Positions 7,682 to 64,000 of a DNA stretch of 64,000 bases are shown in pieces. The notes below the pieces were generated by a model, which was given only the letters and a program-made list of their open reading frames with translations, ran no database searches and was not told the DNA's origin. Source of the DNA: Vicinamibacterales bacterium (GTDB lineage Bacteria; Acidobacteriota; Vicinamibacteria; Vicinamibacterales; UBA2999). The stretch is taken from the NCBI GenBank assembly GCA_036374815.1, contig DASUSZ010000130.1, positions 2,732 through 66,731 on the forward strand, in the 5' to 3' direction. How positions within the stretch are numbered: position 1 is the first letter of the stretch; every line of letters starts with the position of its first letter. Both the position numbers and the translations under genes were made by a program.

Positions 7682-8581
7682 ATGATTCGTGTAGCCAACG
7701 CACCGTGCTCCTGGGGAGTCCTTGAATTTGGCGGCGACGCCAAGCCTGCAACCTTTGACACCGTCCTCGACGAGATCCGATCGACCGGATATGAGGGGAC
7801 CGAGCTGGGCGACTGGGGTTTCATGCCCACCGACCCCGCCGCGCTGAAACGCGAGCTGGCCAGCCGGCGCCTTGCGATGGTCGGCGCGTTCGTTCCGATC
7901 GGGCTGGCCGACGCACGGACGCATGGGTTCGGGCTGGAAACAGCGGTGCGGACGGCGGAGCTGATGCGCGATGCCGGCGCCGCGGAGGCGGTGATTGTGC
8001 TTGCCGACGACAACGCATCGGTGCCGGCGCGCGAGCAGAATGCCGGACGGATCGCGCCCGAGCACGAGCTGACCGATCGGCAATGGGACACCTTTGCCGC
8101 CGGCGCGGACCTCGTCGCCCGCGCGGTGGCGGAGCGCACCGGTTTGCGCACTGTTTTCCATCCGCACTGCGGCGGCTACGTTGAAACCCCGCGCGAGATC
8201 GATGCGCTGATGCAGCGCACGGATCCGAAACGGCTCGGCCTCGTCCTCGACACCGGCCACATCGTCTACGGCGGCGGCGACCCGTTGCGCGTGTTCCAGG
8301 CGCATCGCGATCGCGTATGGCACGTGCACTTCAAGGATTGCGACGCGAACGTCGCCGCGATGGCACGCCAGCAGAAGCTCGGCTACCTCGCCGCGGTCCG
8401 AAAGCAGTTGTTCTGCGAGCTCGGCGAAGGCATTGTCGACTTCGAGGCGGTCACTGCGGCGCTGCGTGAAGCGCGCTACAACGGATGGATCGTGGTCGAG
8501 CAGGATGTCTTCCCGGGGTACGGCTCCCCGAAGGAGAGCGCGGCAAAAAGCCGGAATTACCTACGCAGCCTCGGTGTTTGA
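7682..8581 (+). CDS. iolE: Inosose dehydratase-like sugar phosphate isomerase/epimerase (xylose-isomerase-like TIM barrel)
   Basis: Track ORF 7682..8581. The blocks FHPHCGGYVETPREIDALMQRTDPKRLGLVLDTGHI...VWHVHFKDCD...GWIVVEQD parallel B. subtilis IolE as I remember it. The context is iolB/iolD. Confidence 0.8.
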   Translation: MIRVANAPCSWGVLEFGGDAKPATFDTVLDEIRSTGYEGTELGDWGFMPTDPAALKRELASRRLAMVGAFVPIGLADARTHGFGLETAVRTAELMRDAGAAEAVIVLADDNASVPAREQNAGRIAPEHELTDRQWDTFAAGADLVARAVAERTGLRTVFHPHCGGYVETPREIDALMQRTDPKRLGLVLDTGHIVYGGGDPLRVFQAHRDRVWHVHFKDCDANVAAMARQQKLGYLAAVRKQLFCELGEGIVDFEAVTAALREARYNGWIVVEQDVFPGYGSPKESAAKSRNYLRSLGV

Positions 8582-49287: not shown

Positions 49288-50726
49288 GCGAGAACGAAGA
49301 GCCGCAGGGTCCGATTCGCGCGCCGGGGCTCGAGGGCGCCGTCGCCTGGCTCAATGTCGCCGCGCCGATCACGATCGAGCAGCTGCGCGGCAAGGTCGTC
49401 ATCCTCGATTTCTGGACCTACGGCTGCGTCAACTGCATGCACGTGCTGCGCGATCTGAAAATCCTCGAGCAGCGCTTTCCCGAGGAGCTCGTCGTCATCG
49501 GCGTGCACTCGGCGAAGTTCGCGAACGAGAAGATCACCGACAATCTCGAGCGCATCCTCGTTCGCTACGAGATCGAACACCCGGTCGCCAACGATGCCAA
49601 CCTCGAGATCTGGCGCCGCTACGGCGCGCAGGCGTGGCCGACGCGGGTGATCATCGACCCGGCCGGCAATCTCGTCGGCACGGCGATGGGCGAGGGCAAC
49701 CTCGAAGGCTTCGTGAACGCGATCAGGTCGGTGATCCGCGTCTTCGACGAGCAGGGAGGCATCAACCGCGCGCCGCTGCCGATGCAGCTCGAGCGGCTGC
49801 GCCACGAGGACCGGCCGTTGCTGTATCCAGGCAAAGTGCTCGCCGACGAGCGCAGCGGGCGGCTGTTCATCAGCGACTCCAATCACAATCGCATCGTCGT
49901 GGCGACGCTCGAGGGAAAGCTGATCGAAACGATCGGCTCCGGCCTGCAGGGCGACAACGACGGAATCTTCTCGCAGGCGCGCTTCAACCGCCCGCAAGGT
50001 CTCGCTCTCGATCAGAACAGCCTGTACGTCGCCGACACCGAAAACAACCAGGTGCGCGTCGTCGACTTCGACGCGCGAGCGGTGCACACCGTCGCAATCG
50101 ACGCGAAGATGAAATCGCCATGGGACCTCGCGCTGAAGACCGGCATCCTGATCGTCGCGATGGCGGGCACGCATCAGCTGTGGGTGGTCGATTTGTTGAA
50201 CGACCAGGCGTATCCGTATGCGGGCAGCGGTGAAGAAGCGAGGCGCGACGGCGCCATCACCGAGGCCGCCTTCGCGCAGCCATCGGGTCTGACTGTCGAG
50301 GCCAGCACGCTGTTCGTTGCCGATGCGGAATCGAACACGATTCGCGCGGTGCAGTTACCTCCGGTCAACACCGTGAAGACGATTGCCGGCGGCGACCTGT
50401 TCGAATTTGGCGATGCGGACGGCAAGGGCGACAGCGTCCGGTTGCAGCATCCGCTCGGCGTGGCGTCGACGCACGGCCGGGTGTTCATCGCCGACACCTA
50501 CAATCACAAGATCAAAGTCCTCGAGCCGGCGTCGGGCAAGGTGTCGACGTTTGCGTCCGGCTTCCACGAGCCCGGCGGCCTTTCGATCGCCGGCAGCACG
50601 CTGTTCGTCGCGGACACGAACAATCACTCGATTCGGACGGTGGACCTGGCATCACGAGAGGTGGCGACGCTGCCCGTCGAAGGTTTGACGCCCCCCGACA
50701 CGTGGAGCTACCTTCGCCGCCGATGA
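49284..50726 (+). CDS. Thioredoxin-like domain plus NHL-repeat beta-propeller protein
   Basis: Track ORF 49188..50726, trimmed to ATG 49284 (ATGA overlap). The TlpA/Trx-like block is GKVVILDFWTYGCVNCMHVL. Repeated NHL motifs are present (RFNRPQGLALD..LYVADTENNQVRVV; LQHPLGVAS..VFIADTYNHKIKVL). Confidence 0.8.
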   Translation: MSENEEPQGPIRAPGLEGAVAWLNVAAPITIEQLRGKVVILDFWTYGCVNCMHVLRDLKILEQRFPEELVVIGVHSAKFANEKITDNLERILVRYEIEHPVANDANLEIWRRYGAQAWPTRVIIDPAGNLVGTAMGEGNLEGFVNAIRSVIRVFDEQGGINRAPLPMQLERLRHEDRPLLYPGKVLADERSGRLFISDSNHNRIVVATLEGKLIETIGSGLQGDNDGIFSQARFNRPQGLALDQNSLYVADTENNQVRVVDFDARAVHTVAIDAKMKSPWDLALKTGILIVAMAGTHQLWVVDLLNDQAYPYAGSGEEARRDGAITEAAFAQPSGLTVEASTLFVADAESNTIRAVQLPPVNTVKTIAGGDLFEFGDADGKGDSVRLQHPLGVASTHGRVFIADTYNHKIKVLEPASGKVSTFASGFHEPGGLSIAGSTLFVADTNNHSIRTVDLASREVATLPVEGLTPPDTWSYLRRR

Positions 50727-51970
50727 CGCGACGACTATTGCTCGCGGCGCTGCTCGCCCTCAGCGCGCTCGCCTGCCGCGAAACCGCCGTCTCGGTGCCG
50801 GCGCGTCCGATCCTGATCCTGATCTCGATCGATGGCTTCCGCTGGGATTATCTCGATCGTTTCCGGCCGCCCACACTGGGCGAGCTCGCGAAGAGCGGAG
50901 TGCGCGCCGACGGACTCATTCCTGAATTCCCGTCGAAGACCTTTCCCAACCACTACACGATCGTCACGGGGCTGCGGCTCGCGCGCCACGGCATCATCTC
51001 GAACAACATGCGCGATGCGAACATCGCCGGTGAATTCTCGCTGTCGAATCGACAGGTGCAGCAGGATCCGCGGTGGTGGGGCGGCGAGCCGATCTGGAAC
51101 ACCGCCGAGCAGCAAGGCTTGAAAGCGGGCGCGATGTTCTGGCCGGGGTCCGAAGCGGTGATCAACGGCCGGCAGGCGACCTACTGGATGCCGTTCGACG
51201 ACGACATGCCGAACAGCGCGCGCGTCAATCGCGTGCTCGGCTGGTTGAAGCTTCCGGAAGGGCAGCGGCCCTCGTTCCTGACGCTGTACTTCAGCGACGT
51301 GGACAGCGCCGGGCATCGCAGCGGGCCCGATTCCGCCGACGTGCAGGATGCAGTGCAGCGCGTCGACAGCGAAATCGGCAATCTCGTGGCCGGCGTCAAG
51401 GCGGCGGGCCTTGCCGATCACGTTCACTACGTCATCGTCAGCGATCACGGCATGGCCGGCGTCAGCCCCGAGCGAACGATCGTGCTCGACGAGTTCATCG
51501 ATGTCGAGCAGGTGGAGGTCGTCGACTGGTCGCCCGTTCTCGCGCTCACGCCAAAGGACGGCGACGTCGAGAAGTTGTACGCCGCGCTGAAGGGCAAGCA
51601 CCCCTCGCTCGATGTGTATCGCAGCTCGGAGCTGCCCGCGGAACTTCGATTGGCCGGTCATCCGCGGCTGCCTCCGGTCATTGGCATTGCGAAGGAAGGC
51701 TGGTCGATTACATCGCGGCGCAACCTGCGCCGATGGGTGGAGGACAAGATTCGCAGCCTGGCGAGGGGCGAACACGGCTACGACCCGCGCGTGCAATCGA
51801 TGCACGGCCTGTTCATCGCCAACGGTCCGCGGCTCCGCAGCGGCCTGCGGGTCGCGGCATTCGAGAACGTTCACATCTACGAGTTGATGTGCGCGATCCT
51901 CGGCCTGCAGCCGGCAAAGAACGACGGCGATCCGGCCGTGACTCGCGATATGCTGCGTCCCAGTCAATGA
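50723..51970 (+). CDS. Ectonucleotide pyrophosphatase/phosphodiesterase (NPP, alkaline-phosphatase superfamily)
   Basis: Track ORF 50702..51970, trimmed to ATG 50723 (ATGA overlap; MTRRLLLAALLALSALAC lipobox-like). It contains LISIDGFRWDY, the nucleophile block SKTFPNHYTIVTG, DSAGHRSGP and VSDHGM. Confidence 0.85.
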   Translation: MTRRLLLAALLALSALACRETAVSVPARPILILISIDGFRWDYLDRFRPPTLGELAKSGVRADGLIPEFPSKTFPNHYTIVTGLRLARHGIISNNMRDANIAGEFSLSNRQVQQDPRWWGGEPIWNTAEQQGLKAGAMFWPGSEAVINGRQATYWMPFDDDMPNSARVNRVLGWLKLPEGQRPSFLTLYFSDVDSAGHRSGPDSADVQDAVQRVDSEIGNLVAGVKAAGLADHVHYVIVSDHGMAGVSPERTIVLDEFIDVEQVEVVDWSPVLALTPKDGDVEKLYAALKGKHPSLDVYRSSELPAELRLAGHPRLPPVIGIAKEGWSITSRRNLRRWVEDKIRSLARGEHGYDPRVQSMHGLFIANGPRLRSGLRVAAFENVHIYELMCAILGLQPAKNDGDPAVTRDMLRPSQ

Positions 51971-53259
51971 CCGCAGATTCGGATCGCATCACACCCGCGG
52001 GCTGGAGGATCGTCCTGCTCGCCAGCCTCGGCGGCACCCTCGAGTTTTACGACTTCGTCATCTTCGGCGTGTTCGCGCGCGACATCGGCGCGGCGGTGTT
52101 TGCGCCGAGCTACGACCCGATCGTCCAGTTGATCATGTCGTTCGCGACGTTCACCGTCGGTTACCTGGCCCGGCCGATCGGCGGCATCGTGCTCGCGCAC
52201 TTTGGCGATCGCTACGGCCGCCGCTCAGTATTCCTGTGGTCCGTGTTCGTGATGTCGGCCGCGACCCTCGCGATGGGGCTGGTGCCGCCGTATGCGCAGA
52301 TTGGTGTCGCCGCCAGCCTGCTGATGGTGACGCTGCGATTGATCCAGGGCTTCTGCCTTGGCGGCGAGCTCCCCGGCGCGCTGACCTACGTCGTCGAAAC
52401 GGCGCCGCGCATCGCGCCGTTCGTGTGCGGCGTGGTCTTCGCCTGCGTGACGATGGGCGTAGCGGTGGCCACCGGGGTCAGCCTGTCGGTCCGCACGTTC
52501 ATGGATCCGGAGCTGGTGCCCGCATACGGATGGCGCATTGCCTTCATCCTCGGCGGCCTTGGCGGCGTGCTGAGTTTCGTCCTTCGCCGCTCGCTCGAGG
52601 AGTCGCCGGAGTTCGCGCGCATGAAGAGCCTGGCGGTGCGCCAGCCGTTCCGCGAGCTGCTCCGCACCAACCTTCCTCACGTAGCCGTCGGCTGCGCGCT
52701 GCTTGGCGGCATCGGCTGCTTCAACGGGTTGTTCTTCTCACACCTGTCCGCGTATCTGTCGGCAGTGCTCAAGTACGATGCGCGTCAGGCGGTGCTGGCG
52801 CAGACGGTCGGTGTCATCGTGATGGCTGCCGCGACGTTGCTCACCGGCTGGCTTGGCGATCGCATCCAGCCGCGACACCTGCTGCGGATCGGCGCAGTGC
52901 TGCTGCTGGCTGCCGCGTATCCGTTCTACGCCGCGCTCGAATCGCGCGCCGCGAATCTCACGATGCTGTGCGCGATGGCGGGCCTGGTCGGCGCATTGTC
53001 GGCGGGTTCATTCGCCGTGCTGCTGACAGATTTATTTCCGACACGGATCCGTTTCACCGGTGTTGCGCTGGTCTTCAACGTCGCGTTCACGCTGTTCAGC
53101 GGTACCGCGCCGTTGGTGGCGACGAGCCTGATCGAGGAAACCAAAAGCGCCACCGCGCCGGCATACATGATGGCGGCGTGCGCGGTGATCGCGCTCGCGG
53201 GCAGCTTCTTCAGCGGCCGCTACGGCGGCAACGTGCTAGCGCGCGGCGGAGCCGAGTAA
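51967..53259 (+). CDS. MFS transporter (metabolite:H+ symporter-like)
   Basis: This is the 3' part of track ORF 51073..53259. ATG 51967 forms an ATGA overlap. It contains GTLEFYDFVIFG, MFS motif A (HFGDRYGRRSVF) and 12 predicted TM helices. Confidence 0.85.
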   Translation: MTADSDRITPAGWRIVLLASLGGTLEFYDFVIFGVFARDIGAAVFAPSYDPIVQLIMSFATFTVGYLARPIGGIVLAHFGDRYGRRSVFLWSVFVMSAATLAMGLVPPYAQIGVAASLLMVTLRLIQGFCLGGELPGALTYVVETAPRIAPFVCGVVFACVTMGVAVATGVSLSVRTFMDPELVPAYGWRIAFILGGLGGVLSFVLRRSLEESPEFARMKSLAVRQPFRELLRTNLPHVAVGCALLGGIGCFNGLFFSHLSAYLSAVLKYDARQAVLAQTVGVIVMAAATLLTGWLGDRIQPRHLLRIGAVLLLAAAYPFYAALESRAANLTMLCAMAGLVGALSAGSFAVLLTDLFPTRIRFTGVALVFNVAFTLFSGTAPLVATSLIEETKSATAPAYMMAACAVIALAGSFFSGRYGGNVLARGGAE

Positions 53260-54224: not shown

Positions 54225-56867
54225 ATGCGTACGTTTCGTCTTTGTGTCTTTCTGTCTGCGATAGCGCTTGCCGCTTCGGCGTCCGCGGCCACCATCAGCG
54301 GCGTCATTACCGACAGCAGCGGCGCGGCGTTGCCGTCGACGCGCGTCGTTCTCAAGTCACTCGCCAGCGGCGAGGAAACGATTGTTGAAACCGATGCGTC
54401 CGGCCGTTACACCTTCGACGTGGCGGGCACGGGTTCGTATCTCGTGATTGTCAGCCGCCCCGGATTCTCCGAGGCCGCCCGCACCGTCGTGATCGATTCG
54501 GCGGAGCGCACCTTCGATCTGCCGCTGTCGCTCGAGCTCGGCGTGTTGAGCGACCAGGTGACGGTCACCTCGAGCCGCGGCGATCGCGAGGTCCGGCAGA
54601 TTCCGCTGCACGTCGAGACGCTGTCGCGCGCCGGCATCGAGCAGAGCAACGTGCTCTCGACCGGCGATGCGCTGGCCAGCGCCGTCAACGTCACACCCGT
54701 CGGCAACGGGCCGTTCGGCGTCCGTCCGCGGCTGCGCGGTCTCGATTCGACGCGCATGCTCGTACTGGTCGACGGCGAGCGGCTCAACACCGCGCGGCAG
54801 GCGACCGATCGCACCGGCGCGGAAGTCGGCTTGATCGCACCCGACACCATCAGCCGCGTCGAGATCATCAACGGCGCAGGAACGCTGATGTACGGATCCG
54901 ACGCCCTCGCCGGTACGGTCAACATCATCACCAACGAGACGGCGTTCTCGCCGACGCGGCAGCTCCAGTACGGCTTCAACGGCTTCTACAGCTCCAACGA
55001 GAACGGCATGCGCGGCACCGTGACGCTCGGCGGGTCGTCGCCGCGGGCCACGTTCCGGATCCAGGCCGGCGCCGAGAAGTACGATAACTACCAGGCCGGA
55101 TCGTTCGACCTCGAAGACACGCGTCCACTCTACGCGGATGGCACGCTGCGCCAGGCCGACACGATCGACACGAACTTCGGCTTCAACTTCCGCGCCTTCC
55201 CCGACCCGTTCAACCAGCCGTTCGTGCGCACCGATGCGGAGATCTTGAACTCGCAGGCCGAGGGCAAGTTCGTCAACGCCTCGGGCCTCTTCAAGCTCGG
55301 TGATCGCCGCACGCTGCGTCTCCGCTACCAGAGCCGCCGGATGGAGAACATCGGCTTCCCCGACTTCGAGCAGCCCTACTTCTTCAACGACACGTCGCTG
55401 CCGCACAGCAATCTCGACAAGTTCTCGGCGCGCTATGAAGCGCGGTCGCTCACCCCGTGGCTCGCCAACCTCTCGCTCACCGCGTATTACCAGCGCACCG
55501 AACGCCTGCTGCGCACGACGCTGCCGATCCAGTTCCCGGCCCCGACCGCGGGAGCCTTCTTCCCGATCTCGGTGTTCCGTCTCGACATCCTGTCCGACAC
55601 CGAGCAGCGGGTCTGGACACCTGGCGTCGATCTCAATGCCGTGTTCGTGCCGGCCAAGGATCACTTGCTGACGACCGGCGTCACCTTCTATCGCGATCGC
55701 AGCAGCGATCAGCGGACGACGACGACGCAGATGTCGCTGCTGGGACAGGTGGCGCTCGGCGCCCGCGGCCCGGCGCCCGTGGTGTTCCCTTCGCCGGTCG
55801 CCATCGGGCCGCCGGCGATCGCACACCCGGTCCGCGTGCCGGACGCGAGCCTTCGCGATGTTGCGGTGTTCGCGCAGGACGAGTGGCGCGTCAGGCCGTC
55901 GCTGTCGGTCGTCGCCGGCCTGCGCGGCGACTTCTATACGGTGGTCACCGAAGCCACGCCGGGCTATGACGTGCAGGCGGTGATCGGCAACGCCACGCCG
56001 GCGATCGATCAGAGCAAGCTCCCCGATCCGAACGGCGCCACCTATTCGCGCAACGCCCTCACCGGCGACATCGGCATCGTCTCGAATCCGGATGGCGCCA
56101 TCAACCCGTTCGTCCGATTTGGCCGCAGCTACCGCCATCCGAACCTGGAGGAAATGCTGTTCGCGGGCACGGCGACGAGCGGCAGCCTCCTGCCGAACGT
56201 CACGGTCGAGCCCGAAACCGGCAACAACTTCGATGCGGGCGTGAAGTTCCGCGCCGGCTCGTTCAGCGGCGGCGCTTACTACTTCCTGAACCAGTATCAG
56301 AACTTCATCGCGCAGGATCTCGTGGTCGCCAGCAACGCTGCCGGTCCGCTCGCCCAGGCGCGCAACTTCGGCAACGTGCGCGTCACCGGCGTCGAGCTGT
56401 CCGGCGCGATGCCGATCACGCTGCGTCCCGGAGTGCTGACGCTGACCGGCTCGGCGGCGCTGACGCGCGGCACGATTCGCGAGGGCACCAACCCCCTCGA
56501 CAACAGCTCGCTCGCCGACACGCCGTTCGACAACATCACGCCGTCGAAGGTGATCGCCAACGCCCGCTTCACGCAGTCGCGCGGCCGCTGGTGGGTTGAG
56601 TACGGCGTGCGCGCGCAGGGCGAAGTCAGGCGCGTCGCCGCCACGCTGCTCGACTCGCCGTTCCTGATCGCGCAGGACCTGCTCTCGCTCGACGGCTTCG
56701 CCGTGCATCGCGCCGGCGCCGGCATCAACCTGTCGAGCGGCCGGAACCGCGCGGCGTTGACCTTCGCCGTCGAGAACCTTGCCGATCTCTACTACCGTGA
56801 GCACTTCCAGTTCGCGCCGTCGCGCGGCCGGAGCTTCACGATCGGGCTCAACGTCGGAGCGTTTTAG
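54225..56867 (+). CDS. TonB-dependent receptor with N-terminal carboxypeptidase-regulatory-like domain
   Basis: Track ORF 54225..56867. It has a signal peptide (LCVFLSAIALAASASAA), a CarboxypepD_reg-like block (ISGVITDSSGAALPSTRVVLKS...GSYLVIVSRPGF), a plug (GLDSTRMLVLVDGERLN) and the C-terminal FTIGLNVGAF. Confidence 0.9.
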   Translation: MRTFRLCVFLSAIALAASASAATISGVITDSSGAALPSTRVVLKSLASGEETIVETDASGRYTFDVAGTGSYLVIVSRPGFSEAARTVVIDSAERTFDLPLSLELGVLSDQVTVTSSRGDREVRQIPLHVETLSRAGIEQSNVLSTGDALASAVNVTPVGNGPFGVRPRLRGLDSTRMLVLVDGERLNTARQATDRTGAEVGLIAPDTISRVEIINGAGTLMYGSDALAGTVNIITNETAFSPTRQLQYGFNGFYSSNENGMRGTVTLGGSSPRATFRIQAGAEKYDNYQAGSFDLEDTRPLYADGTLRQADTIDTNFGFNFRAFPDPFNQPFVRTDAEILNSQAEGKFVNASGLFKLGDRRTLRLRYQSRRMENIGFPDFEQPYFFNDTSLPHSNLDKFSARYEARSLTPWLANLSLTAYYQRTERLLRTTLPIQFPAPTAGAFFPISVFRLDILSDTEQRVWTPGVDLNAVFVPAKDHLLTTGVTFYRDRSSDQRTTTTQMSLLGQVALGARGPAPVVFPSPVAIGPPAIAHPVRVPDASLRDVAVFAQDEWRVRPSLSVVAGLRGDFYTVVTEATPGYDVQAVIGNATPAIDQSKLPDPNGATYSRNALTGDIGIVSNPDGAINPFVRFGRSYRHPNLEEMLFAGTATSGSLLPNVTVEPETGNNFDAGVKFRAGSFSGGAYYFLNQYQNFIAQDLVVASNAAGPLAQARNFGNVRVTGVELSGAMPITLRPGVLTLTGSAALTRGTIREGTNPLDNSSLADTPFDNITPSKVIANARFTQSRGRWWVEYGVRAQGEVRRVAATLLDSPFLIAQDLLSLDGFAVHRAGAGINLSSGRNRAALTFAVENLADLYYREHFQFAPSRGRSFTIGLNVGAF

Positions 56868-56869
56868 CC

Positions 56870-57565
56870 ATGTCTGCGCAAGCGGTTCACTACGTTCCGA
56901 TCGTCACGACGATCCTTGCGGTGATCTTCTCGGCGGAGATTTTCCGCCGCTATCGAGAGCACCCCGAGCGCCTGCACCTGTGGTGGTGGGCGTTCGGCAT
57001 CGCGGTCTACGGCGTCGGCACGTTCACCGAAGCGGCGACGACGGTGGTGGGGTGGAACGAGCCGACGTTCCGGGCGTGGTACATCTCGGGCGCGCTGCTC
57101 GGCGGCGCGCCGCTCGCCCAGGGCACGGTCTACCTGCTGCTGGCGCGCCGCACCGCGCACCTGCTGACGGTGCTGCTCGTCAGCTTCGTCGCGATCGCGT
57201 CGGTGGCGGTGTTGCTGTCGCCGATCGACTACTCGCAGGTCGAAACGCATCGCCTGACCGGGCGCGTCTTCGCGTGGCAGTGGGTGAGGGCGTTCAGCCC
57301 GTTCGTCAACATGTACGCCGTGGTGTTCCTGATCGGCGGCGCGATTCTCTCGGCGCTGCGCTATACCGCCAACCCGGCGACGCGTCATCGCGTGATCGCC
57401 AACGTGCTGATCGCGGTCGGCGCGATCCTGCCCGGCATCGGCGGCACGGCGACGCGCATGGGCTACACCGAAGTGCTCTACGTCACCGAGCTCGCGGGAC
57501 TGCTGCTGACGTGGATGGGCTATCGCATGAGCGTCCGGCCAGTCTCGATGCCGGTTACTGCGTGA
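56870..57565 (+). CDS. Hypothetical 6-TM membrane protein
   Basis: Track ORF 56870..57565. The ATG lies 2 nt after the TBDR stop. It has six hydrophobic helices, no recognised motif and high GC3. Confidence 0.65.
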   Translation: MSAQAVHYVPIVTTILAVIFSAEIFRRYREHPERLHLWWWAFGIAVYGVGTFTEAATTVVGWNEPTFRAWYISGALLGGAPLAQGTVYLLLARRTAHLLTVLLVSFVAIASVAVLLSPIDYSQVETHRLTGRVFAWQWVRAFSPFVNMYAVVFLIGGAILSALRYTANPATRHRVIANVLIAVGAILPGIGGTATRMGYTEVLYVTELAGLLLTWMGYRMSVRPVSMPVTA

Positions 57566-58129: not shown

Positions 58130-58158
58130 ATACTAAACTGGCATTTATTAACTGTCAA
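58130..58158 (-). promoter_or_regulatory. Sigma70-like promoter reading toward the DHFR-family gene
   Basis: On the minus strand: TTGACA (58158..58153), a 17-nt spacer, then TAGTAT (58135..58130). The predicted +1 falls inside the palindrome at 58106-58125. Confidence 0.55.
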
Positions 58159-58194: not shown

Positions 58195-58782
58195 ATGGCC
58201 AGACCGCAGAAAGTTACCGACGACGACATTTACACGGCCGCGCAGCGCGCGATGTCGCGGCTGGGCCCGGGAGAACTGACGCTCGCCGACATCGCCCAGG
58301 AAGCCGGCGTCACGGCGGGACTCCTGGTTCAGCGCTTCGGCTCAAAGCGCGATCTGCTGCTGTCGTTGTCGGAGAAATTCTCGGGCGGCGCGGGCGAGAT
58401 GTTCGCCGGGCTGCGCAAGGGCCATCGTTCACCGCTGGCGGCGCTTCGCGCCTACAGCGATTGCATGGCCCACATGGCCGCGACGCCTGCCGCCTTCGCG
58501 CGCAACTTCGCCTACCTGCAGATCGATCTGACCGATCCTGATTTCCGGAAGCACATCGCCAGGCACGCGGCGGCCAGCCGCGTGGAACTCCAGAAGCTCG
58601 TCCGCGAAGCGATCGCTGCCAAGGAGTTGAAGCCGGATACCAATGCTAAGCAGTTGGCGCGGACGATCGAAGCAGTGGTCGGCGGCTCGATGTTGAGCTG
58701 GGCCTTCTATCAGGAAGGCACCGCCCAAAAATGGATGCGGCATGACCTCGATGCCGTGTTGAAGCCCTACATCAGGGAATAG
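58195..58782 (+). CDS. TetR/AcrR-family transcriptional regulator
   Basis: Track ORF 58195..58782. The N-terminal HTH is IYTAAQRAMSRLGPGELTLADIAQEAGVTAGLLVQRFGSKRDLL. Confidence 0.9.
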   Translation: MARPQKVTDDDIYTAAQRAMSRLGPGELTLADIAQEAGVTAGLLVQRFGSKRDLLLSLSEKFSGGAGEMFAGLRKGHRSPLAALRAYSDCMAHMAATPAAFARNFAYLQIDLTDPDFRKHIARHAAASRVELQKLVREAIAAKELKPDTNAKQLARTIEAVVGGSMLSWAFYQEGTAQKWMRHDLDAVLKPYIRE

Positions 58783-58810: not shown

Positions 58811-59995
58811 ATGCGCACTGCGCTCGCTGTCGTCACTCTCGCAGGTGCGGTCGCCCTTGGCGCGGCCACCATGTCCAGCCCGGACGACGACCAGAAGGCT
58901 GCGTCGAAACCTGCCGCTGCGGAGAAGAAGGACGACAAGAAAGATAAGAAGGACGACCAGGGCGGCAAGAAACCGCTCAAGTCGAAGACCGTGTCCGCTG
59001 AAGAACGCGTCGACGCGCTGTCGCGCGCCGCGGTGTGGATTGCGCCCCCGCCGATCGGCAAGGCCAACCTCGGCCCGCTGCCGAATCAGCCCAGGGAAGT
59101 GACGTGCACCTTCGAGATCTCGCAGCTCGGAGGCACCGCGCCCAAGTTCGATTGCAAGACCAAGGACGGCGAGAAGCTTCGCATCAAGTACGGACGCAGC
59201 CCCGAAGTGCCGTCGGAGGTCGCCGCCGCAAAGCTGCTGCACACGCTCGGTTTCGGCGCCGACAACGTCATCCTCGTCGAGAACGTGCGTTGCTACGGCT
59301 GCCCGGCCGAGCCCTTCATGACCATGAAGACGCTGGGTCTCGCCGGCGCCGAGAAACTCTACTCGAAGGTGATGGATCCGAAAGACTACAAGGATTTCGA
59401 GTGGGCGGCCGTCGAGCGCAAGCACTATGGGCGGCCGATCGAGACGGAGGAAGTCGAAGGCTGGGCGTTCTTCGAGCTCGATCTGATCGACCCGAAAAAA
59501 GGCGGCGCGCCGCGCGCCCATGTCGATGCGCTGCGCCTGCTGTCCGTGATGCTGTCGCACTGGGACAACAAGAGCGAGAACCAGCGCCTGGTCTGCCTGT
59601 CAGAGAAGGACTGGCCCGAGGGCGGCAAGTGCTCGAAGCCGTTCGCGATGCTGCAGGACGTCGGCTCGGCGTGGGGACCGCGCAAGGTCGATCTTCCCGA
59701 GTGGGAGAAAGCGCCGCTCTGGGCCGACCGCAAGACGTGCACGGCGTCGATGGATCACCTGCCGTATCACGGCGCCACGTTCAACCCGGTGAAGATCAGC
59801 GAGGCCGGCCGCAAGCATCTCGGCGGCCTGCTGACGCAGCTTTCCGATGCGCAGCTCGATGCGCTGTTCCGCAGCGCGCGCTTCGACCGCCCCACCGGCC
59901 TGGTCGTGCAGCAGACCACGCCGATCTCGGAGTGGGTGCGGGTGTTCAAGCAGAAGGTGAAGCAGGTTACCGACGGTCCGGCGTGTCCTCAGTAG
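58811..59995 (+). CDS. Secreted, Cys-rich hypothetical protein with protein-kinase-like motifs
   Basis: Track ORF 58811..59995. It has a signal peptide (MRTALAVVTLAGAVALGAA), a K/D-rich low-complexity segment and 8 Cys. The kinase-like motifs are LGGTAPKF, LRIK(126)YG, PSE(136)VAAAKLL, H(250)WDNKSEN(257) (nt 59558-59581) and D(283)VG. Confidence 0.7.
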   Translation: MRTALAVVTLAGAVALGAATMSSPDDDQKAASKPAAAEKKDDKKDKKDDQGGKKPLKSKTVSAEERVDALSRAAVWIAPPPIGKANLGPLPNQPREVTCTFEISQLGGTAPKFDCKTKDGEKLRIKYGRSPEVPSEVAAAKLLHTLGFGADNVILVENVRCYGCPAEPFMTMKTLGLAGAEKLYSKVMDPKDYKDFEWAAVERKHYGRPIETEEVEGWAFFELDLIDPKKGGAPRAHVDALRLLSVMLSHWDNKSENQRLVCLSEKDWPEGGKCSKPFAMLQDVGSAWGPRKVDLPEWEKAPLWADRKTCTASMDHLPYHGATFNPVKISEAGRKHLGGLLTQLSDAQLDALFRSARFDRPTGLVVQQTTPISEWVRVFKQKVKQVTDGPACPQ

Positions 59996-60947
59996 CACGG
60001 CCCGTCGAAGGCCGCCTTCGCAGCGAGCCGGCATCCACGGTCTCACCCTTGCGGTTGATCGCCTGGAAGAAGAATCCCTCGTCGCTGATTTCCGCGAGCA
60101 TGAAGTGATAGTCCTGATCGTAGCTGCGCGCGATCTGCGGCACCTGCCGCGCATCGCCGGCGCGCAGTGAGCCCGCGCCGCCGGTCACGAAATACAGGAT
60201 GCCGCGCTGCAGCTCCGAGCGCGCGTAGATGTGCTCGTGGCCGCTGAACACCACGTCGACCCCGCCATTGACGAACGCCGATTCGAGCGCCAGCCGGATG
60301 CCGCGCGCCGCGAGGCTGTAGCGGCCCGACGTGTAGACCGGGTGATGCATGAACGCGATCTTCCATTCAGCCCGCGACTCGGTGACCTCCTTCTCGAACC
60401 AGCGCAGCTGCTCGAGCGACAGGTAGGTGCTGTCGAGCGCGAAGAAGCGGACGCGGGTGTCCCAGCGCGTGATGGGATCGACCGGCGGCACGAACGTGTA
60501 GTACCGCTCGCCGCCCATGTTGAACGGCTTGTAGAAGATCTGGTTGGTGTCGTCGTGGTTGCCGAGCGCCGCGTAGAACTTCACGCCCGCATCGAGCAGC
60601 GGCTTATACGGCTCCTCGAACTTGAGGCGATAGTCTTCCTCGCTGGCAGGTCCTTCATAAATGTTGTCGCCGGCCATCAGCACGAATTCGAAGTCGAACC
60701 GCTGCCGATAGGCGGCCATCTGCGCGCCGACCTCGTGCTGGGCCTTGTCGCCGCGCCCGCTGTCGCCGATGATCGCGAACTTGATCGAGCGTTCGGCGTT
60801 GGGCAATGCGAGCTGGCCGGGCGCGATTGAGGCCGGTTGCAGGGCTTCGAGCGTCGGGCGTGCGGTCTCGTCCCTGGTCCGGTCATTCCAGCTGTTGCCG
60901 CAGGCGGTAAGAACGCTGATTTGAAGGCAGAGGACGAGCCAACGCAT
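59967..60947 (-). CDS. Calcineurin-like metallophosphoesterase lipoprotein (purple-acid-phosphatase-like)
   Basis: Track ORF 59967..60950 (GTG 60950 or ATG 60947). The signal is MRWLVLCLQISVLTAC. The motifs GDSG, AGDNIY, GNHD, HHP and GHEH appear in canonical order. Confidence 0.85.
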   Translation of the reverse strand: MRWLVLCLQISVLTACGNSWNDRTRDETARPTLEALQPASIAPGQLALPNAERSIKFAIIGDSGRGDKAQHEVGAQMAAYRQRFDFEFVLMAGDNIYEGPASEEDYRLKFEEPYKPLLDAGVKFYAALGNHDDTNQIFYKPFNMGGERYYTFVPPVDPITRWDTRVRFFALDSTYLSLEQLRWFEKEVTESRAEWKIAFMHHPVYTSGRYSLAARGIRLALESAFVNGGVDVVFSGHEHIYARSELQRGILYFVTGGAGSLRAGDARQVPQIARSYDQDYHFMLAEISDEGFFFQAINRKGETVDAGSLRRRPSTGRATEDTPDRR

Positions 60948-61090
60948 CACGAGTCGACCGATGCACGAAGTGCACCAACCCCCTGTGTAGCGCGAGGCCC
61001 AAACTGGGCATCGCCCGGTTCATGCTGATGAGGTAGACGGGGCACTTTTGGGCGCAACGGTGGCACAGCTATTGAAGTCATAACAGCGCC

Positions 61091-61771
61091 ATGACGAAGT
61101 TACTCTCGGCGTTGATCGCGCTCTCCACCGTGTTCGCGTTCGCGTGCAACCGTGCGGATAGCGCCGAACCTCGTGCGTTGGCCTCCGCCGACGCGCAGAG
61201 CAAACCCGCGACGAACGCAACTCCCGTGAACCCGCCGATTGGCCACGAGCCGGGCGTGACCCCGGACGGCAAGGCCATCAATCCGCAGGGCGCGGCGACG
61301 CTCGAATTCAAGAAGCACATCGACGCGTACATGAAGATTCACAACGAGGCCGAAAGCAAGGTGCCGGCCCTCAAGCGCACCGACGACCCGAAGGAGATTG
61401 CCGATCGGGAAACCGCGCTCGCCAAGATGATCATGACGCTGCGCGCCGGCGCGAAGCCCGGCGACATCTTCGCCCCCGAGTATCAGCCGTACTTCGTCAA
61501 GATCGTGCAGGACGACTTCAAGTTGCGCTCCGCCGCCGACCGCAAGGCGCTCGTCGCCGAGCTGCCGAAGAACATCAAGGTCGACATCAACACCGTCTAC
61601 CCCACGACGCTGCCGCTCGAGACGTTCCCGCCGGCGCTGCTCAGGAAGCTCCCCGATCTTCCGCAGGAGCTCGAATACCGCATCGTCGGGCGCAGCTTGA
61701 TTCTGCGCGACGTCAAGGCCAATCTGATTGTCGACATCCTTCGAGACGTGGTGCCGACCATTCCGAGCTGA
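61091..61771 (+). CDS. Hypothetical lipoprotein
   Basis: Track ORF 61091..61771. The signal is MTKLLSALIALSTVFAFAC. It has high GC3 and no recognised motif. Confidence 0.65.
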   Translation: MTKLLSALIALSTVFAFACNRADSAEPRALASADAQSKPATNATPVNPPIGHEPGVTPDGKAINPQGAATLEFKKHIDAYMKIHNEAESKVPALKRTDDPKEIADRETALAKMIMTLRAGAKPGDIFAPEYQPYFVKIVQDDFKLRSAADRKALVAELPKNIKVDINTVYPTTLPLETFPPALLRKLPDLPQELEYRIVGRSLILRDVKANLIVDILRDVVPTIPS

Positions 61772-61784
61772 CGTGGGATAGATC

Positions 61785-62708
61785 ATGAAGAAGTCATCCG
61801 TTCGCCTCTTCGTTTCGTGCTGGGCCCTGCTCGCGGTCGCCTGCCTCACCACCACCCAGGCGCTCAACGATCAGCAACAGCAGCCGCGCGCGCCGGTGGC
61901 GCAGATCGGCGCCGCCACCGAAGTCCAGCCGCCGGTCGGCAAGGACTCGGTGAAGTTCCTGGTGATCGGCGACAGCGGCACCGGCGATCGCGCGCAGACG
62001 GAAACCGCCGCGCAGATGTGGAAGGCGCACGCGGCGTTCCCGTACGAGTTCGCGATCATGCTCGGCGACAACATGTACGGCTCGGAGCGGCCGCAGGATT
62101 ACGTGTCGAAGTTCGAGCGGCCGTTCAAGCCGCTGCTCGACAACAAGATCGAGTTCTATGCCGCGCTGGGCAACCACGACGATCCGAACCAGCGCTTCTA
62201 CAAGAACTTCGGCATGGGCGGGAAGCGCTTCTACACGTTCGAGAAGAAGGACGCCAAGTTCTTCGTGCTCGACAGCAACTACATGGACCAGGACCAGCAG
62301 AAGTGGCTCGACAACGAGCTGTCGCGCACCGGCTCGAAGTGGAAGATCGCCTACTTCCACCACCCGATTTACTCGTCCGGCGGCCGCCACGGATCGGAGG
62401 TCGACCTGCGGTCGATCATCGAGCCGATGTTCATCAAGTACAACCTGAACGTGGTGTTCGCCGGGCACGAGCACTTCTACGAACGGTTGAAGCCGCAAAA
62501 GGGCATCCACTATTTCACCGCCGGCGGTTCGGCGAAGCTGCGCGCCGGCGACATCATGCAGAACTCGGGCATGACCGCGAAGGGTTTCGATACCGAGCAG
62601 AGCTTCATGCTGGTCGAGATCGACGGCGACGTGATGCGGTTCCAGACGATTTCGCGGCGCGGCCGTCGCGTCGATTCCGGCGAGGTGCGCCGGACCCCGT
62701 CTTCCTAG
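61785..62708 (+). CDS. Calcineurin-like metallophosphoesterase (paralogue of 59967..60947)
   Basis: Track ORF 61785..62708. It has a signal peptide and the motifs GDSGTGD, LGDNMY, GNHDD, FHHPIYSSG and GHEHFYER. Confidence 0.85.
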   Translation: MKKSSVRLFVSCWALLAVACLTTTQALNDQQQQPRAPVAQIGAATEVQPPVGKDSVKFLVIGDSGTGDRAQTETAAQMWKAHAAFPYEFAIMLGDNMYGSERPQDYVSKFERPFKPLLDNKIEFYAALGNHDDPNQRFYKNFGMGGKRFYTFEKKDAKFFVLDSNYMDQDQQKWLDNELSRTGSKWKIAYFHHPIYSSGGRHGSEVDLRSIIEPMFIKYNLNVVFAGHEHFYERLKPQKGIHYFTAGGSAKLRAGDIMQNSGMTAKGFDTEQSFMLVEIDGDVMRFQTISRRGRRVDSGEVRRTPSS

Positions 62709-62718
62709 AAGGGCAGTC

Positions 62719-63390
62719 ATGCAGCCAGGTGTCGATCTCCCCGGGGTAATGGACACGTTCCAGGAGGAACTGTTCGCATCCGCGATCCGCTTACCTCTCG
62801 CCGCGTTGCTCGGCACCGTGCTGGCCTTGCGGCCCCGCCGCAACGGCACGCCGGAGCGGCAGCCGGCCGTCGTGCAGACGCAGATCATCCTGGCGGTGGT
62901 CGGCTCGCTGATCATGCTGGTGGTCGGCGCGAGCCTGGCGCGCGCGTTCGGCATTGTCGGCGCCGCCAACCTGATTCGCTACCGCTCGAAGATCGAGGAT
63001 CCGAAGGACGCGGTCGTGATGCTGTGCGCGCTGGCCGCGGGCCTGGCCGCCGGCGTCGGCCTCTACGGCCTCTCGGTGATCGGCACGCTGTTCATCGTGT
63101 TGTGCCTGTGGATCATCGAGGGCTTCGAGCCGCAAACGCGCCTGTTCGAGCTCAACGTCAAGATGGGCGACAACACCGCGGAGCTGCGGCCGAAGATCGA
63201 GGAAGTGCTGCGCCGCTACAAGGCGCGCTATGAGCTGCGCACCGCCGCCGAGGACACCGTGTCGTACATGGTGACCACGCCGAAGGCGCTGCGGACCGAT
63301 CGCGTGTCGAACGCGCTGATGGAGCTGGCGCCGGACGGCAAGGGCGCGGTCGAGTGGGCCGAGAAGGCCAAAGACAAAGTGCCGAAGTGA
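62719..63390 (+). CDS. DUF4956-like membrane protein
   Basis: Track ORF 62719..63390. It has 3-4 TM helices and the block GAANLIRYRSKIEDPKDAVVMLCALAAGLAAG, which resembles the (I/L)(I/V)RFRT..KDP core I recall for DUF4956. A soluble C-terminal domain follows. Confidence 0.7.
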   Translation: MQPGVDLPGVMDTFQEELFASAIRLPLAALLGTVLALRPRRNGTPERQPAVVQTQIILAVVGSLIMLVVGASLARAFGIVGAANLIRYRSKIEDPKDAVVMLCALAAGLAAGVGLYGLSVIGTLFIVLCLWIIEGFEPQTRLFELNVKMGDNTAELRPKIEEVLRRYKARYELRTAAEDTVSYMVTTPKALRTDRVSNALMELAPDGKGAVEWAEKAKDKVPK

Positions 63391-63394
63391 CGCC

Positions 63395-64000
63395 GTGAAG
63401 CTCATCGTCCAGCCCGAAGCCGGCGTCGTTCCGGTGGTGCAGGCCATCAAGGCCGCGAAGAAGTGGATCGACATCCTCATCTTCCGCTTCGATCGCACTG
63501 AAATCGAAAAAGCCCTCGCCGCGGCGGTGCAGCGCGGCGTCAAGGTGCGCGCGCTCATCGCGCATACCAACCGCGGCGGCGAATCGCGGCTGCGCAAGCT
63601 CGAGCAGCGGCTGCTCGCGGCCGGCGTGCTGGTGTCGCGCAGCGCCGACGACCTGATTCGCTATCACGCGAAATTCATGGTCGTCGACTCGACCACGCTG
63701 CACCTGTTCGGCTTCAATTTCACCAAGCTCGACATCGACAAGAGCCGCAGTTTCGCGATTTCAACGCGCGACTCGAAGGCGGTGGCCGAGGCGGTGCGGC
63801 TGTTCGAGTCGGACCTGACGCGGCAGGCGTTCATCCCGGGGAAATCGCACCTGGTGGTCAGCCCGGAAAACGCGCGCGCCATGCTGACCGCGTTCATCGC
63901 CAGCACCAGGAGAGAGCTGCTGATCTACGACACCAAGGTCCAGGACCCGTCGATGATCCGGCTCCTCAAGGAGCGCGCCGCCAAGGGCGTGCGCATCCGC
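63395..64000 (+). CDS. Phospholipase D-family (HKD) protein, 5' portion; runs off the right window edge
   Basis: Not in the track because no stop lies in the window. Hand translation from GTG 63395 gives VKLIVQPEAGVVPVVQAIKAAKKWIDILIFRFDRTEIEKALAAAVQRGVKVRALIAHTNRGG...IRYHAKFMVVDSTTLHLFGFNFT. The HKD motif is HAKFMVVD. A second PLD-like repeat begins near ...RRELLIYDTKVQD. Confidence 0.8.
   Translation, partial: MKLIVQPEAGVVPVVQAIKAAKKWIDILIFRFDRTEIEKALAAAVQRGVKVRALIAHTNRGGESRLRKLEQRLLAAGVLVSRSADDLIRYHAKFMVVDSTTLHLFGFNFTKLDIDKSRSFAISTRDSKAVAEAVRLFESDLTRQAFIPGKSHLVVSPENARAMLTAFIASTRRELLIYDTKVQDPSMIRLLKERAAKGVRIR

Follow-up and report, generated by a model that had tools for sequence, protein, structure and literature searches.

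Candidate exported phosphotransferases of the protein-kinase-like superfamily in Acidobacteriota-type bacteria

Bacteria have very few kinase-fold enzymes that act beyond their cytoplasm, and ATP is generally considered to be lacking in the periplasm. Here we describe a gene from a 64,000-nucleotide stretch of DNA of a Vicinamibacterales bacterium (contig DASUSZ010000130.1 of assembly GCA_036374815.1, positions 2,732 to 66,731; the whole stretch is hereafter called the window). The gene, referred to below as the target, occupies positions 58811–59995 on the forward strand, and the open reading frame (ORF) call confirmed it as a real frame of 394 codons. The initial annotation, made from the letters of the sequence, had read it as an extracytoplasmic protein of the kinase type. 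In our judgement the target probably encodes an active extracytoplasmic phosphotransferase of a new kinase-like family within the superfamily of protein-kinase-like (PKL) proteins. The observations on which this proposal is built are the predicted fold, the conservation of the motifs, the export signals, the gene linkage and a set of domain fusions.

Among solved structures, the best match to the target is CtkA (JHP0940; PDB 3akj, 3akk and 3akl), the cell-translocating Ser/Thr kinase of Helicobacter pylori. This compact enzyme is an atypical bacterial kinase from the HipA/PI3K-like branch and, like the target in its proposed setting, acts outside the cytoplasm of the producing cell. A C-terminal signal and a link to a type IV secretion system have been described for CtkA (PMC5536186). 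However, it has no Sec signal, no conserved disulfide set and no phosphatase module, all three of which are predicted for the target, and the two proteins share just 9–12% identity, with no sequence-profile likeness (phmmer and two profiles against the PDB) and a root-mean-square deviation (r.m.s.d.) of ~7 Å. HipA and HipT (PDB 3tpv, 3dnt, 4pu4 and 7ab3) are also fold neighbours of the target, with a probability of 0.91–0.97. HipA has the antitoxin HipB as its partner and stays in the cytoplasm, where tRNA synthetases are its phosphorylation targets, whereas the target comes from a family with export signals, has a TetR-type gene upstream and carries a D-x-K-x-x-N catalytic loop; it does not have the traits of a HipA-type cytoplasmic toxin. 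Fam20C (PDB 4kqb) is the best-known kinase of an oxidising extracytoplasmic compartment, being stabilised by disulfides and provided with ATP from the Golgi lumen. It is a fold neighbour with a probability of 0.99 and a template-modelling (TM) score of only 0.33–0.35, and we know of no periplasmic equivalent of its Golgi-lumen ATP supply. The PI3K and PIKK enzymes (ATM, ATR, VPS34) match the target repeatedly, with probabilities of 0.8–0.96, and have the same D…N…D layout; their TM-scores are very low from the difference in size. Their catalytic loop reads D-R-H-x-x-N in contrast to D-x-K-x-x-N, and the target has neither helical or FAT domains nor a match to the Pfam PI3_PI4_kinase profile. 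The novel families of the Legionella pan-kinome that we examined also differ from the target family.

Likenesses are likewise found in the genetic setting. In Firmicutes and bifidobacteria, a CotH kinase, a polyphosphate polymerase and a DUF4956 protein are encoded by a contiguous conserved gene set (PMC7112168). This arrangement parallels the linkage of the target to a DUF4956/MgtC gene, but the module around the target is without the VTC-type polyphosphate polymerase and has purple-acid-phosphatase (PAP)-like phosphatases, an exported protein that we call hyp_61091 and a phospholipase D (PLD)-like protein instead. SEAE1 is a bacterial PI-kinase-like family that was found by structure prediction and is closest to the PI3K/PI4K types; it adjoins a PAP2 phosphatase gene in Segetibacter, is said to be non-secreted and comes mainly from Bacteroidota and Verrucomicrobiota (bioRxiv 10.64898/2026.09.18.752743). 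In WP_147203046.1 its key residues are K140, D216, N221 and D241-x-D243, and an Arg (R146) replaces the αC Glu (bioRxiv 10.64898/2026.09.18.752743). Compared by description only, SEAE1 is the nearest described analogue of the target family. Both share a link to PAP2, as a gene neighbour in SEAE1 and as a fusion in the target family, and the latter is set apart, again by description, by the Glu on αC, the D-x-G motif, the export signals, the eight Cys residues and its Acidobacteriota-type origin.

Predicted fold and catalytic motifs

The structural assignment comes from an AlphaFold2 model computed from a family alignment (A2) of 83 sequences with identity down to 32%. The predicted local distance difference test (pLDDT) of this model is 90.0 and its predicted TM-score 0.84, with nearly all of residues 61–394 above 90. 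The predicted structure has the two lobes of a kinase, with a sheet and an αC helix in the N-lobe and a helical C-lobe. Its elements follow in the order strand 96–102, the G108/K112 loop, strand 112–116, strand 122–126, helix 132–146, strands 152–162 and 193–203, helix 235–248, loop 250–257, the hairpin 258–262/277–281 and D283-x-G285. When this model was compared with the PDB using Foldseek, 13 matches were obtained at E ≤0.001, and the top 50 were all protein-kinase-like, which bears out the kinase-like fold foreseen in the initial annotation. The best of them was CtkA of Helicobacter pylori (E 1.4e-5, probability 1.00), with a TM-score of 0.38 on the query and 0.48–0.50 on the matched structure; further matches within the top 50 were ATM, ATR, Tel1, the Golgi casein kinase Fam20C, HipA, HipT, VPS34 and, from plants and animals, the Ser/Thr kinases BRI1, BIKE and AAK1. 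A first model, built from a shallow alignment in which all sequences were at least 67% identical, had a pLDDT of 60.6, falling below 50 in the catalytic region, and was discarded.

Conservation was counted over 331 aligned full-length family members, many of which are only 33–52% identical to the target, and the motif positions that had been proposed were all verified by script. The segment LGGTAPKF had been described as a Gly-rich strand. Its position (106–113) stands, but the model shows it as a loop that joins strands 1 and 2, and of the two glycines G108 alone is conserved (320/331), along with K112 and F113 (325/331 each); the family consensus is G-x-[T/A/S]-P-K-F. The proposed β3 Lys, K126 at the end of LRIK, closes strand 122–126 and is Lys in 316 members and Arg in 11 more. 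E136 of PSEVAAAKLL (134–143), proposed as the αC Glu, lies on helix 132–146 and is retained in 301/331, and E132 on the same helix is conserved as well (320/331); both of these assignments agree with the topology of the model. The comparison of HWDNKSEN (250–257) with HRDLKPEN holds for D252 (327/331) and K254 (307/331), and H250 is kept in 289 members. It has to be corrected at N257, where 258 members have Asn and 67 have Gln, next to Q258 (321/331). This alternation of Asn and Gln beside an invariant Gln is unusual for the catalytic loop of a kinase; the PAP2-fusion branch described below provides an example with Gln at position 257, HTDSKPEQQ. The DVG motif, likened to DFG, follows strand 277–281, and its Asp and Gly are found in 327 and 328 members, respectively.

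The conservation survey that the initial annotation had called for therefore gives a clear answer, with K112, K126, E132/E136, D252, K254, N/Q257, Q258, D283 and G285 kept in 91–99% of the 331 sequences. No positions in the family are better conserved than the five kinase motifs, which also follow one another as in a kinase and sit on the strands, helices and loops where that fold would have them; their occurrence is far beyond chance. The D-x-K-x-x-N loop is the pattern of the Ser/Thr protein kinases (HRDLKPEN). Judged from the sequences, the two residue signatures of the PKL superfamily both appear to be present, namely a catalytic Asp with a metal-binding Asn five residues further on, and a DFG-type Asp.

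At the level of sequence the family stands apart. Searches of the target against Pfam, NCBIfam and the PDB sequences (phmmer) returned only noise in the low-complexity N-terminus, and none of the Pfam kinase-clan profiles (Pkinase, APH, PI3_PI4_kinase, Fam20C, CotH, ABC1, RIO) matched the target at E up to 10 or two sets of 83 and 63 family members at E up to 0.1–1. Two family profiles (A2 and A3) found no kinase among all PDB sequences at E up to 10; their single match, ribosomal protein L29 (E 0.005), was spurious. Over Pfam scans of 83, 63 and a further 10 members, the HipA_2 profile gave just two matches, both sub-threshold (E 0.003) and both among the 83; the 63 of the second subfamily had none, and HipA membership on that basis was dropped. 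The target belongs to a large environmental family whose members are all annotated as hypothetical. There are 1,707 matches in a 90%-clustered database, every one unnamed or ‘hypothetical’, and those that are labelled come from Vicinamibacterales or from metagenome-assembled genomes (MAGs) of Acidobacteriota; an exhaustive profile search counted 1,369 representatives at 50% identity, 340 of them at E <1e-30.

Export signals, domain fusions and linked genes

We think that the target is a Sec-exported protein with ~330 residues in the predicted PKL-fold part and that it works in the periplasm or the envelope. The signal peptide and K/D-rich spacer recognised by the initial annotation are both apparent, the former by heuristic hydropathy: the N-terminus, MRTALAVVTLAGAVALGAATM, has a single basic residue before a 17-residue hydrophobic core (Kyte–Doolittle value 2.39), and the K/D/P/A-rich stretch that follows, approximately residues 22–60, differs in length among homologues in the family alignment. 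The same kind of hydropathy call, applied to 72 diverse homologues with a complete N-terminus, found a hydrophobic N-terminal segment in 60 and a lipobox-like Cys in ~21, and some members have N-terminal anchors of several transmembrane helices (for example P0130). A Sec or lipoprotein signal is therefore predicted family-wide. The count of exactly eight cysteines, at positions 99, 115, 161, 164, 262, 274, 310 and 392, was reproduced by script. All eight are present in 308 of the 331 members, and the few losses occur in pairs, C262 with C274 and C310 with C392. Four disulfides are likely, C99–C115, C161–C164, C262–C274 and C310–C392.

Natural fusions place the kinase-like domain next to other envelope functions. 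In P0231 and P0232 (626 and 693 residues) it is fused to a membrane domain of the PAP2 lipid-phosphate phosphatases. By a crude hydropathy scan, P0232 consists of a signal-like N-terminus, the kinase-like domain, two transmembrane helices and the PAP2 KX6RP motif; PAP2 active sites lie on the outer face of the membrane, and this topology would thus put both catalytic domains on that face. P0130 (602 residues) has an N-terminal domain with six transmembrane helices, and P0135 (553 residues) has a membrane-anchored N-terminal extension. In P0224 (553 residues), a signal peptide is followed by a domain like hyp_61091 (residues 33–182, 32% identity, E 4e-16) and then by the kinase-like domain (residues 198–522, 37% identity to the target, E 4e-54).

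The genes around the target were compared in 20 loci from species-representative genomes and in two metagenome contigs, all of them Acidobacteriota-type MAGs. The convergent phosphoesterase gene noted by the initial annotation is indeed present; it encodes a Metallophos protein with a lipoprotein-type signal, and of the 20 genome loci 18 have it directly downstream of the target, to ~40% identity of the target (L021). The genes for hyp_61091, a second Metallophos lipoprotein and the MgtC/DUF4956 membrane protein (Table 1) persist to ~54% identity and in part to a locus at 30% (L022). Among PDB sequences, the Metallophos proteins are closest to purple acid phosphatases and tartrate-resistant acid phosphatases (TRAP), with E 1.5e-10. 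L025, which carries a 38%-identical member of another subfamily, has these types of gene as well, but arranged differently: a small transmembrane protein, the kinase-like lipoprotein, an Omp85 protein, two tandem pairs of a Metallophos and a hyp_61091-like protein, a PLD-like protein and a DUF4956 protein. In L027, another locus with a member at 38% identity, the kinase-like gene has an MgtC/DUF4956 gene (52% identical) and the gene for the small transmembrane protein directly upstream. The reshuffled order in L025, the adjacency in L027 and the fusion in P0224 point to a linkage beyond inherited gene order.

Proposed activity and alternative explanations

The catalysis, the roles of individual residues, the substrate and the donor are what we infer from these features. 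In the mechanism that we propose, the G108/K112 loop together with K126 and E132/E136 would hold the phosphates of the nucleotide donor, D252 would act as the catalytic base that deprotonates a substrate hydroxyl, K254 would contact and stabilise the transferred phosphate, and N/Q257 and D283 would bind metal ions. The partner of K126 may be either E132 or E136, and K112 and K126 may divide their roles in more than one way, as these positions are fitted by topology alone. The target would work in an envelope module with the two PAP-like lipoproteins, hyp_61091, the MgtC/DUF4956 membrane protein and the PLD-like protein. Within it, the PAP-like lipoproteins might reverse or recycle the product of the target, hyp_61091 might be its subunit, adaptor or substrate, and the DUF4956 protein might help to supply the phosphate donor, by analogy with the set of CotH, polyphosphate polymerase and DUF4956. 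DUF4956-type membrane proteins may in general accompany atypical kinases, with a role in donor supply.

The substrate would be an envelope component. We lean slightly, and tentatively, towards the head group of a membrane lipid or glycan, in view of the PAP2 fusions, the PLD-like partner and the PI3K-like structural neighbours. A protein substrate appears somewhat less likely; it is suggested by CtkA, HipA and ATM as the closest folds, by the D-x-K-x-x-N loop and by the TRAP-like phosphatases, enzymes of a kind that can act on phosphoproteins. More speculatively, and with a good deal of doubt, one might imagine a dedicated extracytoplasmic phosphorylation cycle in soil Acidobacteria, in which the kinase writes phosphate onto a lipid, glycan or protein of the envelope, the paired PAP-like lipoproteins, each with its hyp_61091 partner, erase, and the MgtC/DUF4956 protein and a PLD- or polyphosphate-kinase-like enzyme deliver the donor across the inner membrane, possibly as polyphosphate rather than ATP, following the same logic as the CotH set.

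Several points weigh against an active exported phosphotransferase. A sequence-level tie to any known kinase family is absent in the Pfam, NCBIfam and PDB profile searches, and comparison with solved kinases yields modest TM-scores (0.38 for the query, 0.50 for the matched structure; r.m.s.d. ~7 Å). The mapping of residues onto the kinase fold comes from topology and conservation, not from superposition, and the disulfide pairs were proposed from cysteines lost together in a few sequences rather than read off the geometry of the model. The association with the module is strong only in the subfamily of the window; two of six loci of the distant subfamily show it, and other neighbours are found in L026, L028 and L029 and on the contigs of P0203 and P0231. 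Part of the synteny may also be inherited rather than functional, as the loci all come from Acidobacteriota-type MAGs. Finally, the availability of ATP in the bacterial periplasm has, to our knowledge, not been established.

The alternative that holds up best, although we consider it unlikely, is that the kinase fold serves another chemistry, such as AMPylation or UMPylation of the SelO type, another nucleotide-dependent transfer, or the hydrolysis of nucleoside triphosphates or polyphosphate for phosphate scavenging. Kinase-fold enzymes that carry out AMPylation (SelO) or glutamylation (SidJ) are known, exported phosphoesterases are abundant near the target (the two PAP-like genes and a nucleotide pyrophosphatase gene accompanied by a transporter and a TonB-dependent receptor), and the Gln at position 257 in ~20% of members is non-canonical. 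On the other hand, SelO-type AMPylases are not known to carry the canonical catalytic Asp and bind ATP in a flipped orientation, whereas here a canonical H-x-D-x-K-x-x-N loop is followed by D-x-G, the Asp and Lys are near-invariant, and SelO- or Fic-like structures are absent among the top Foldseek matches.

A slightly less probable option is an inert pseudokinase or binding protein, acting as a nucleotide or phosphate sensor or as a scaffold for the PAP-like phosphatases and hyp_61091. Pseudokinases typically lose the Lys, the catalytic Asp or the DFG Asp, all of which are kept here in >95% of the 331 members, and their retention across such deep divergence argues for selection on catalysis. 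In favour of this option, the fusions and gene adjacency tie the target to partner proteins, and ATP is not known to be available in the periplasm.

It is improbable, in our view, that the target is a HipA/CtkA-type kinase of the cytoplasm (a toxin-like Ser/Thr kinase, say) and that its N-terminal segment is no export signal. CtkA, HipA and HipT are among the closest solved structures, and the gene for a DNA-binding regulator directly upstream gives the locus a superficial likeness to hipB–hipA; however, that TetR gene is lost below ~60% identity, neither the HipA_C nor the HipA_2 Pfam profile matches the target, and an hhalign comparison of A2 with Escherichia coli HipA, uninformative with HipA as a single sequence, gave a probability of 0.4%. 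The hydrophobic N-terminal segment is found family-wide, with lipobox variants, the eight cysteines are conserved, the PAP2 fusions would place the kinase domain on the outer face, and the partner genes encode exported lipoproteins. It is hardly credible that short motifs of some unrelated fold resemble those of kinases by coincidence: no sequence-profile method ties the family to kinases and TM-scores reach only ~0.4–0.5, but the best 50 structural matches are all kinases, of several branches and with probabilities up to 1.00, and five motifs stand in order on the expected secondary structure as the most conserved positions of the family.

An exported and catalytically active kinase-like protein is, in our view, the best account of the target, and the extracytoplasmic kinase-type function that the initial annotation had put forward is supported by the fold, the conserved residues and the export signals, with catalysis as the inferred part. 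What is new is a large family in which export signals and a conserved set of cysteines accompany a conserved catalytic site, and for which neither Pfam nor NCBIfam has an entry and sequence searches find no solved relative. An active family would imply either that phosphate donor reaches the envelope by an unrecognised supply or that the kinase fold can use a new donor, and hyp_61091, the PAP-like lipoproteins and the DUF4956/MgtC-like proteins would gain a function. The likeness to the CotH set hints at a general rule, open to testing in the two systems alike. Genomes of Vicinamibacterales and others of the Acidobacteriota type, which belong to common and poorly understood soil bacteria, carry the family in abundance, and it may therefore bear on the cycling of soil phosphorus or on envelope remodelling.

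Features of the locus and minor observations

Table 1. Features of the target gene and its surroundings (positions are those of the window)
Feature	Position	Strand	Remarks
Target ORF, predicted exported PKL-fold protein	58811..59995	+	394 residues, ATG start
Signal-peptide-like N-terminus, residues 1–21	58811..58873	+	MR and 17-residue hydrophobic core, ALGA/A-type cleavage region
K/D/P/A-rich low-complexity linker, residues ~22–60	58874..58990	+	Gappy unconserved alignment columns, pLDDT <50
Loop between strands 1 and 2, L106-GGTAPK-F113, putative nucleotide-phosphate-binding	59126..59149	+	G108, K112 and F113 conserved
K126 with E132/E136, putative β3-Lys/αC-Glu pair	59186..59218	+	Conservation and model topology
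Putative catalytic loop H250-W-D252-N-K254-S-E-N257-Q258 (D-x-K-x-x-N)	59558..59584	+	Follows helix 235–248, precedes strand 258–262
D283-V-G285, putative DFG-like metal-binding motif	59657..59665	+	After strand 277–281
TetR-family regulator	58195..58782	+	Pfam TetR_N and TetR_C_13; 28 nt upstream of target
Convergent PAP-like metallophosphoesterase	59967..60950	-	Pfam Metallophos; lipoprotein-type signal (…VLTAC)
hyp_61091, exported lipoprotein-like protein	61091..61771	+	Without a match in Pfam, NCBIfam or the PDB
Second PAP-like metallophosphoesterase lipoprotein (…LAVAC)	61785..62708	+	Pfam Metallophos; conserved in module
MgtC/DUF4956 integral membrane protein	62719..63390	+	Pfam MgtC 39 bits, DUF4956 34.9 bits, above cutoff
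PLD-superfamily (HKD) protein	63395..64000, cut by window end	+	PLDc_2 E 8e-20, HAKFMVVD; no signal peptide visible
Type I phosphodiesterase/nucleotide pyrophosphatase (NPP)	50702-51970		Upstream region
Major facilitator superfamily (MFS) transporter	~51970-53259		Upstream region
TonB-dependent receptor with CarboxypepD_reg N-terminal domain	54225-56867		Upstream region
231-residue membrane protein, no Pfam match	56870-57565		Upstream region

The TetR gene stands immediately upstream of the target, as had been pointed out, and is probably co-transcribed with it, yet it is only a clade-local neighbour. TetR and RibD_C genes adjoin only relatives of at least 60% identity, and TetR is absent in L013–L022, so that both were rejected as core functional partners. 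At the other end, the 3′ ends of the target and the Metallophos gene overlap tail to tail by 29 nt (59967–59995), with no space left for a terminator between them; L001 and L002 have this overlap too. A promoter and terminator scan around the target gave nothing above shuffle expectation except one promoter-like site, a sigma-70-like match at 58130–58158 on the reverse strand (TTGACA-17-TAGTAT), which lies in the divergent space between RibD_C and TetR, is directed towards RibD_C and is a plausible control point for TetR.

The PLD-like protein has an orthologue in L001 (10573–11433) and a homologue in the cluster of L025 (11801–12913). It contains two PLDc_2 domains and a sub-threshold likeness to PP_kinase_C_1 and the polyphosphate kinase C-terminus (E 3e-4 to 3e-3), which may reflect the shared PLD fold only. 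In L010–L015 an extra gene of 332 codons (for example L013 10708–11706) lies between those for the second Metallophos and the MgtC/DUF4956 proteins; it has no Pfam match and no VTC domain, and a VTC polyphosphate polymerase in the module was rejected as a candidate. Genes for outer-membrane proteins of the Omp85 superfamily occur beside or near the kinase-like gene in L025 (7332–8480) and L013 (3162–4442). L001 and L002 likewise have the phosphodiesterase and MFS pair upstream, a sign that the phosphorus-related region may extend further.

In the distant subfamily, the kinase-like gene has upstream of it, within a few bases, the gene for a conserved protein of 70–81 residues with a single transmembrane helix (…LALAYGGFSY…), at 5751–5996 in L025, at 5783–5995 in L027 and at 15–227 on the contig of P0296, where the second gene occupies 233–1309. 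In L029 a gene of 71 codons (8262–8477) lies downstream of the kinase-like gene instead, and no equivalent was seen beside the target gene in the window. The PAP2-fusion gene on the contig of P0231 (L024) is surrounded by many ORFs of 40–210 codons without a Pfam match and stands beside an rve integrase; this region may be mobile or poorly assembled. Five loci (L003, L004, L008, L010 and L019) are labelled as Cyanobacteriota, ‘uncultured cyanobacterium’ or Acidimicrobiia in the MAG records. Their gene order is like that of the window and their proteins are 70–88% identical to those encoded there, and the labels are probably binning or labelling errors of Vicinamibacterales-like genomes.

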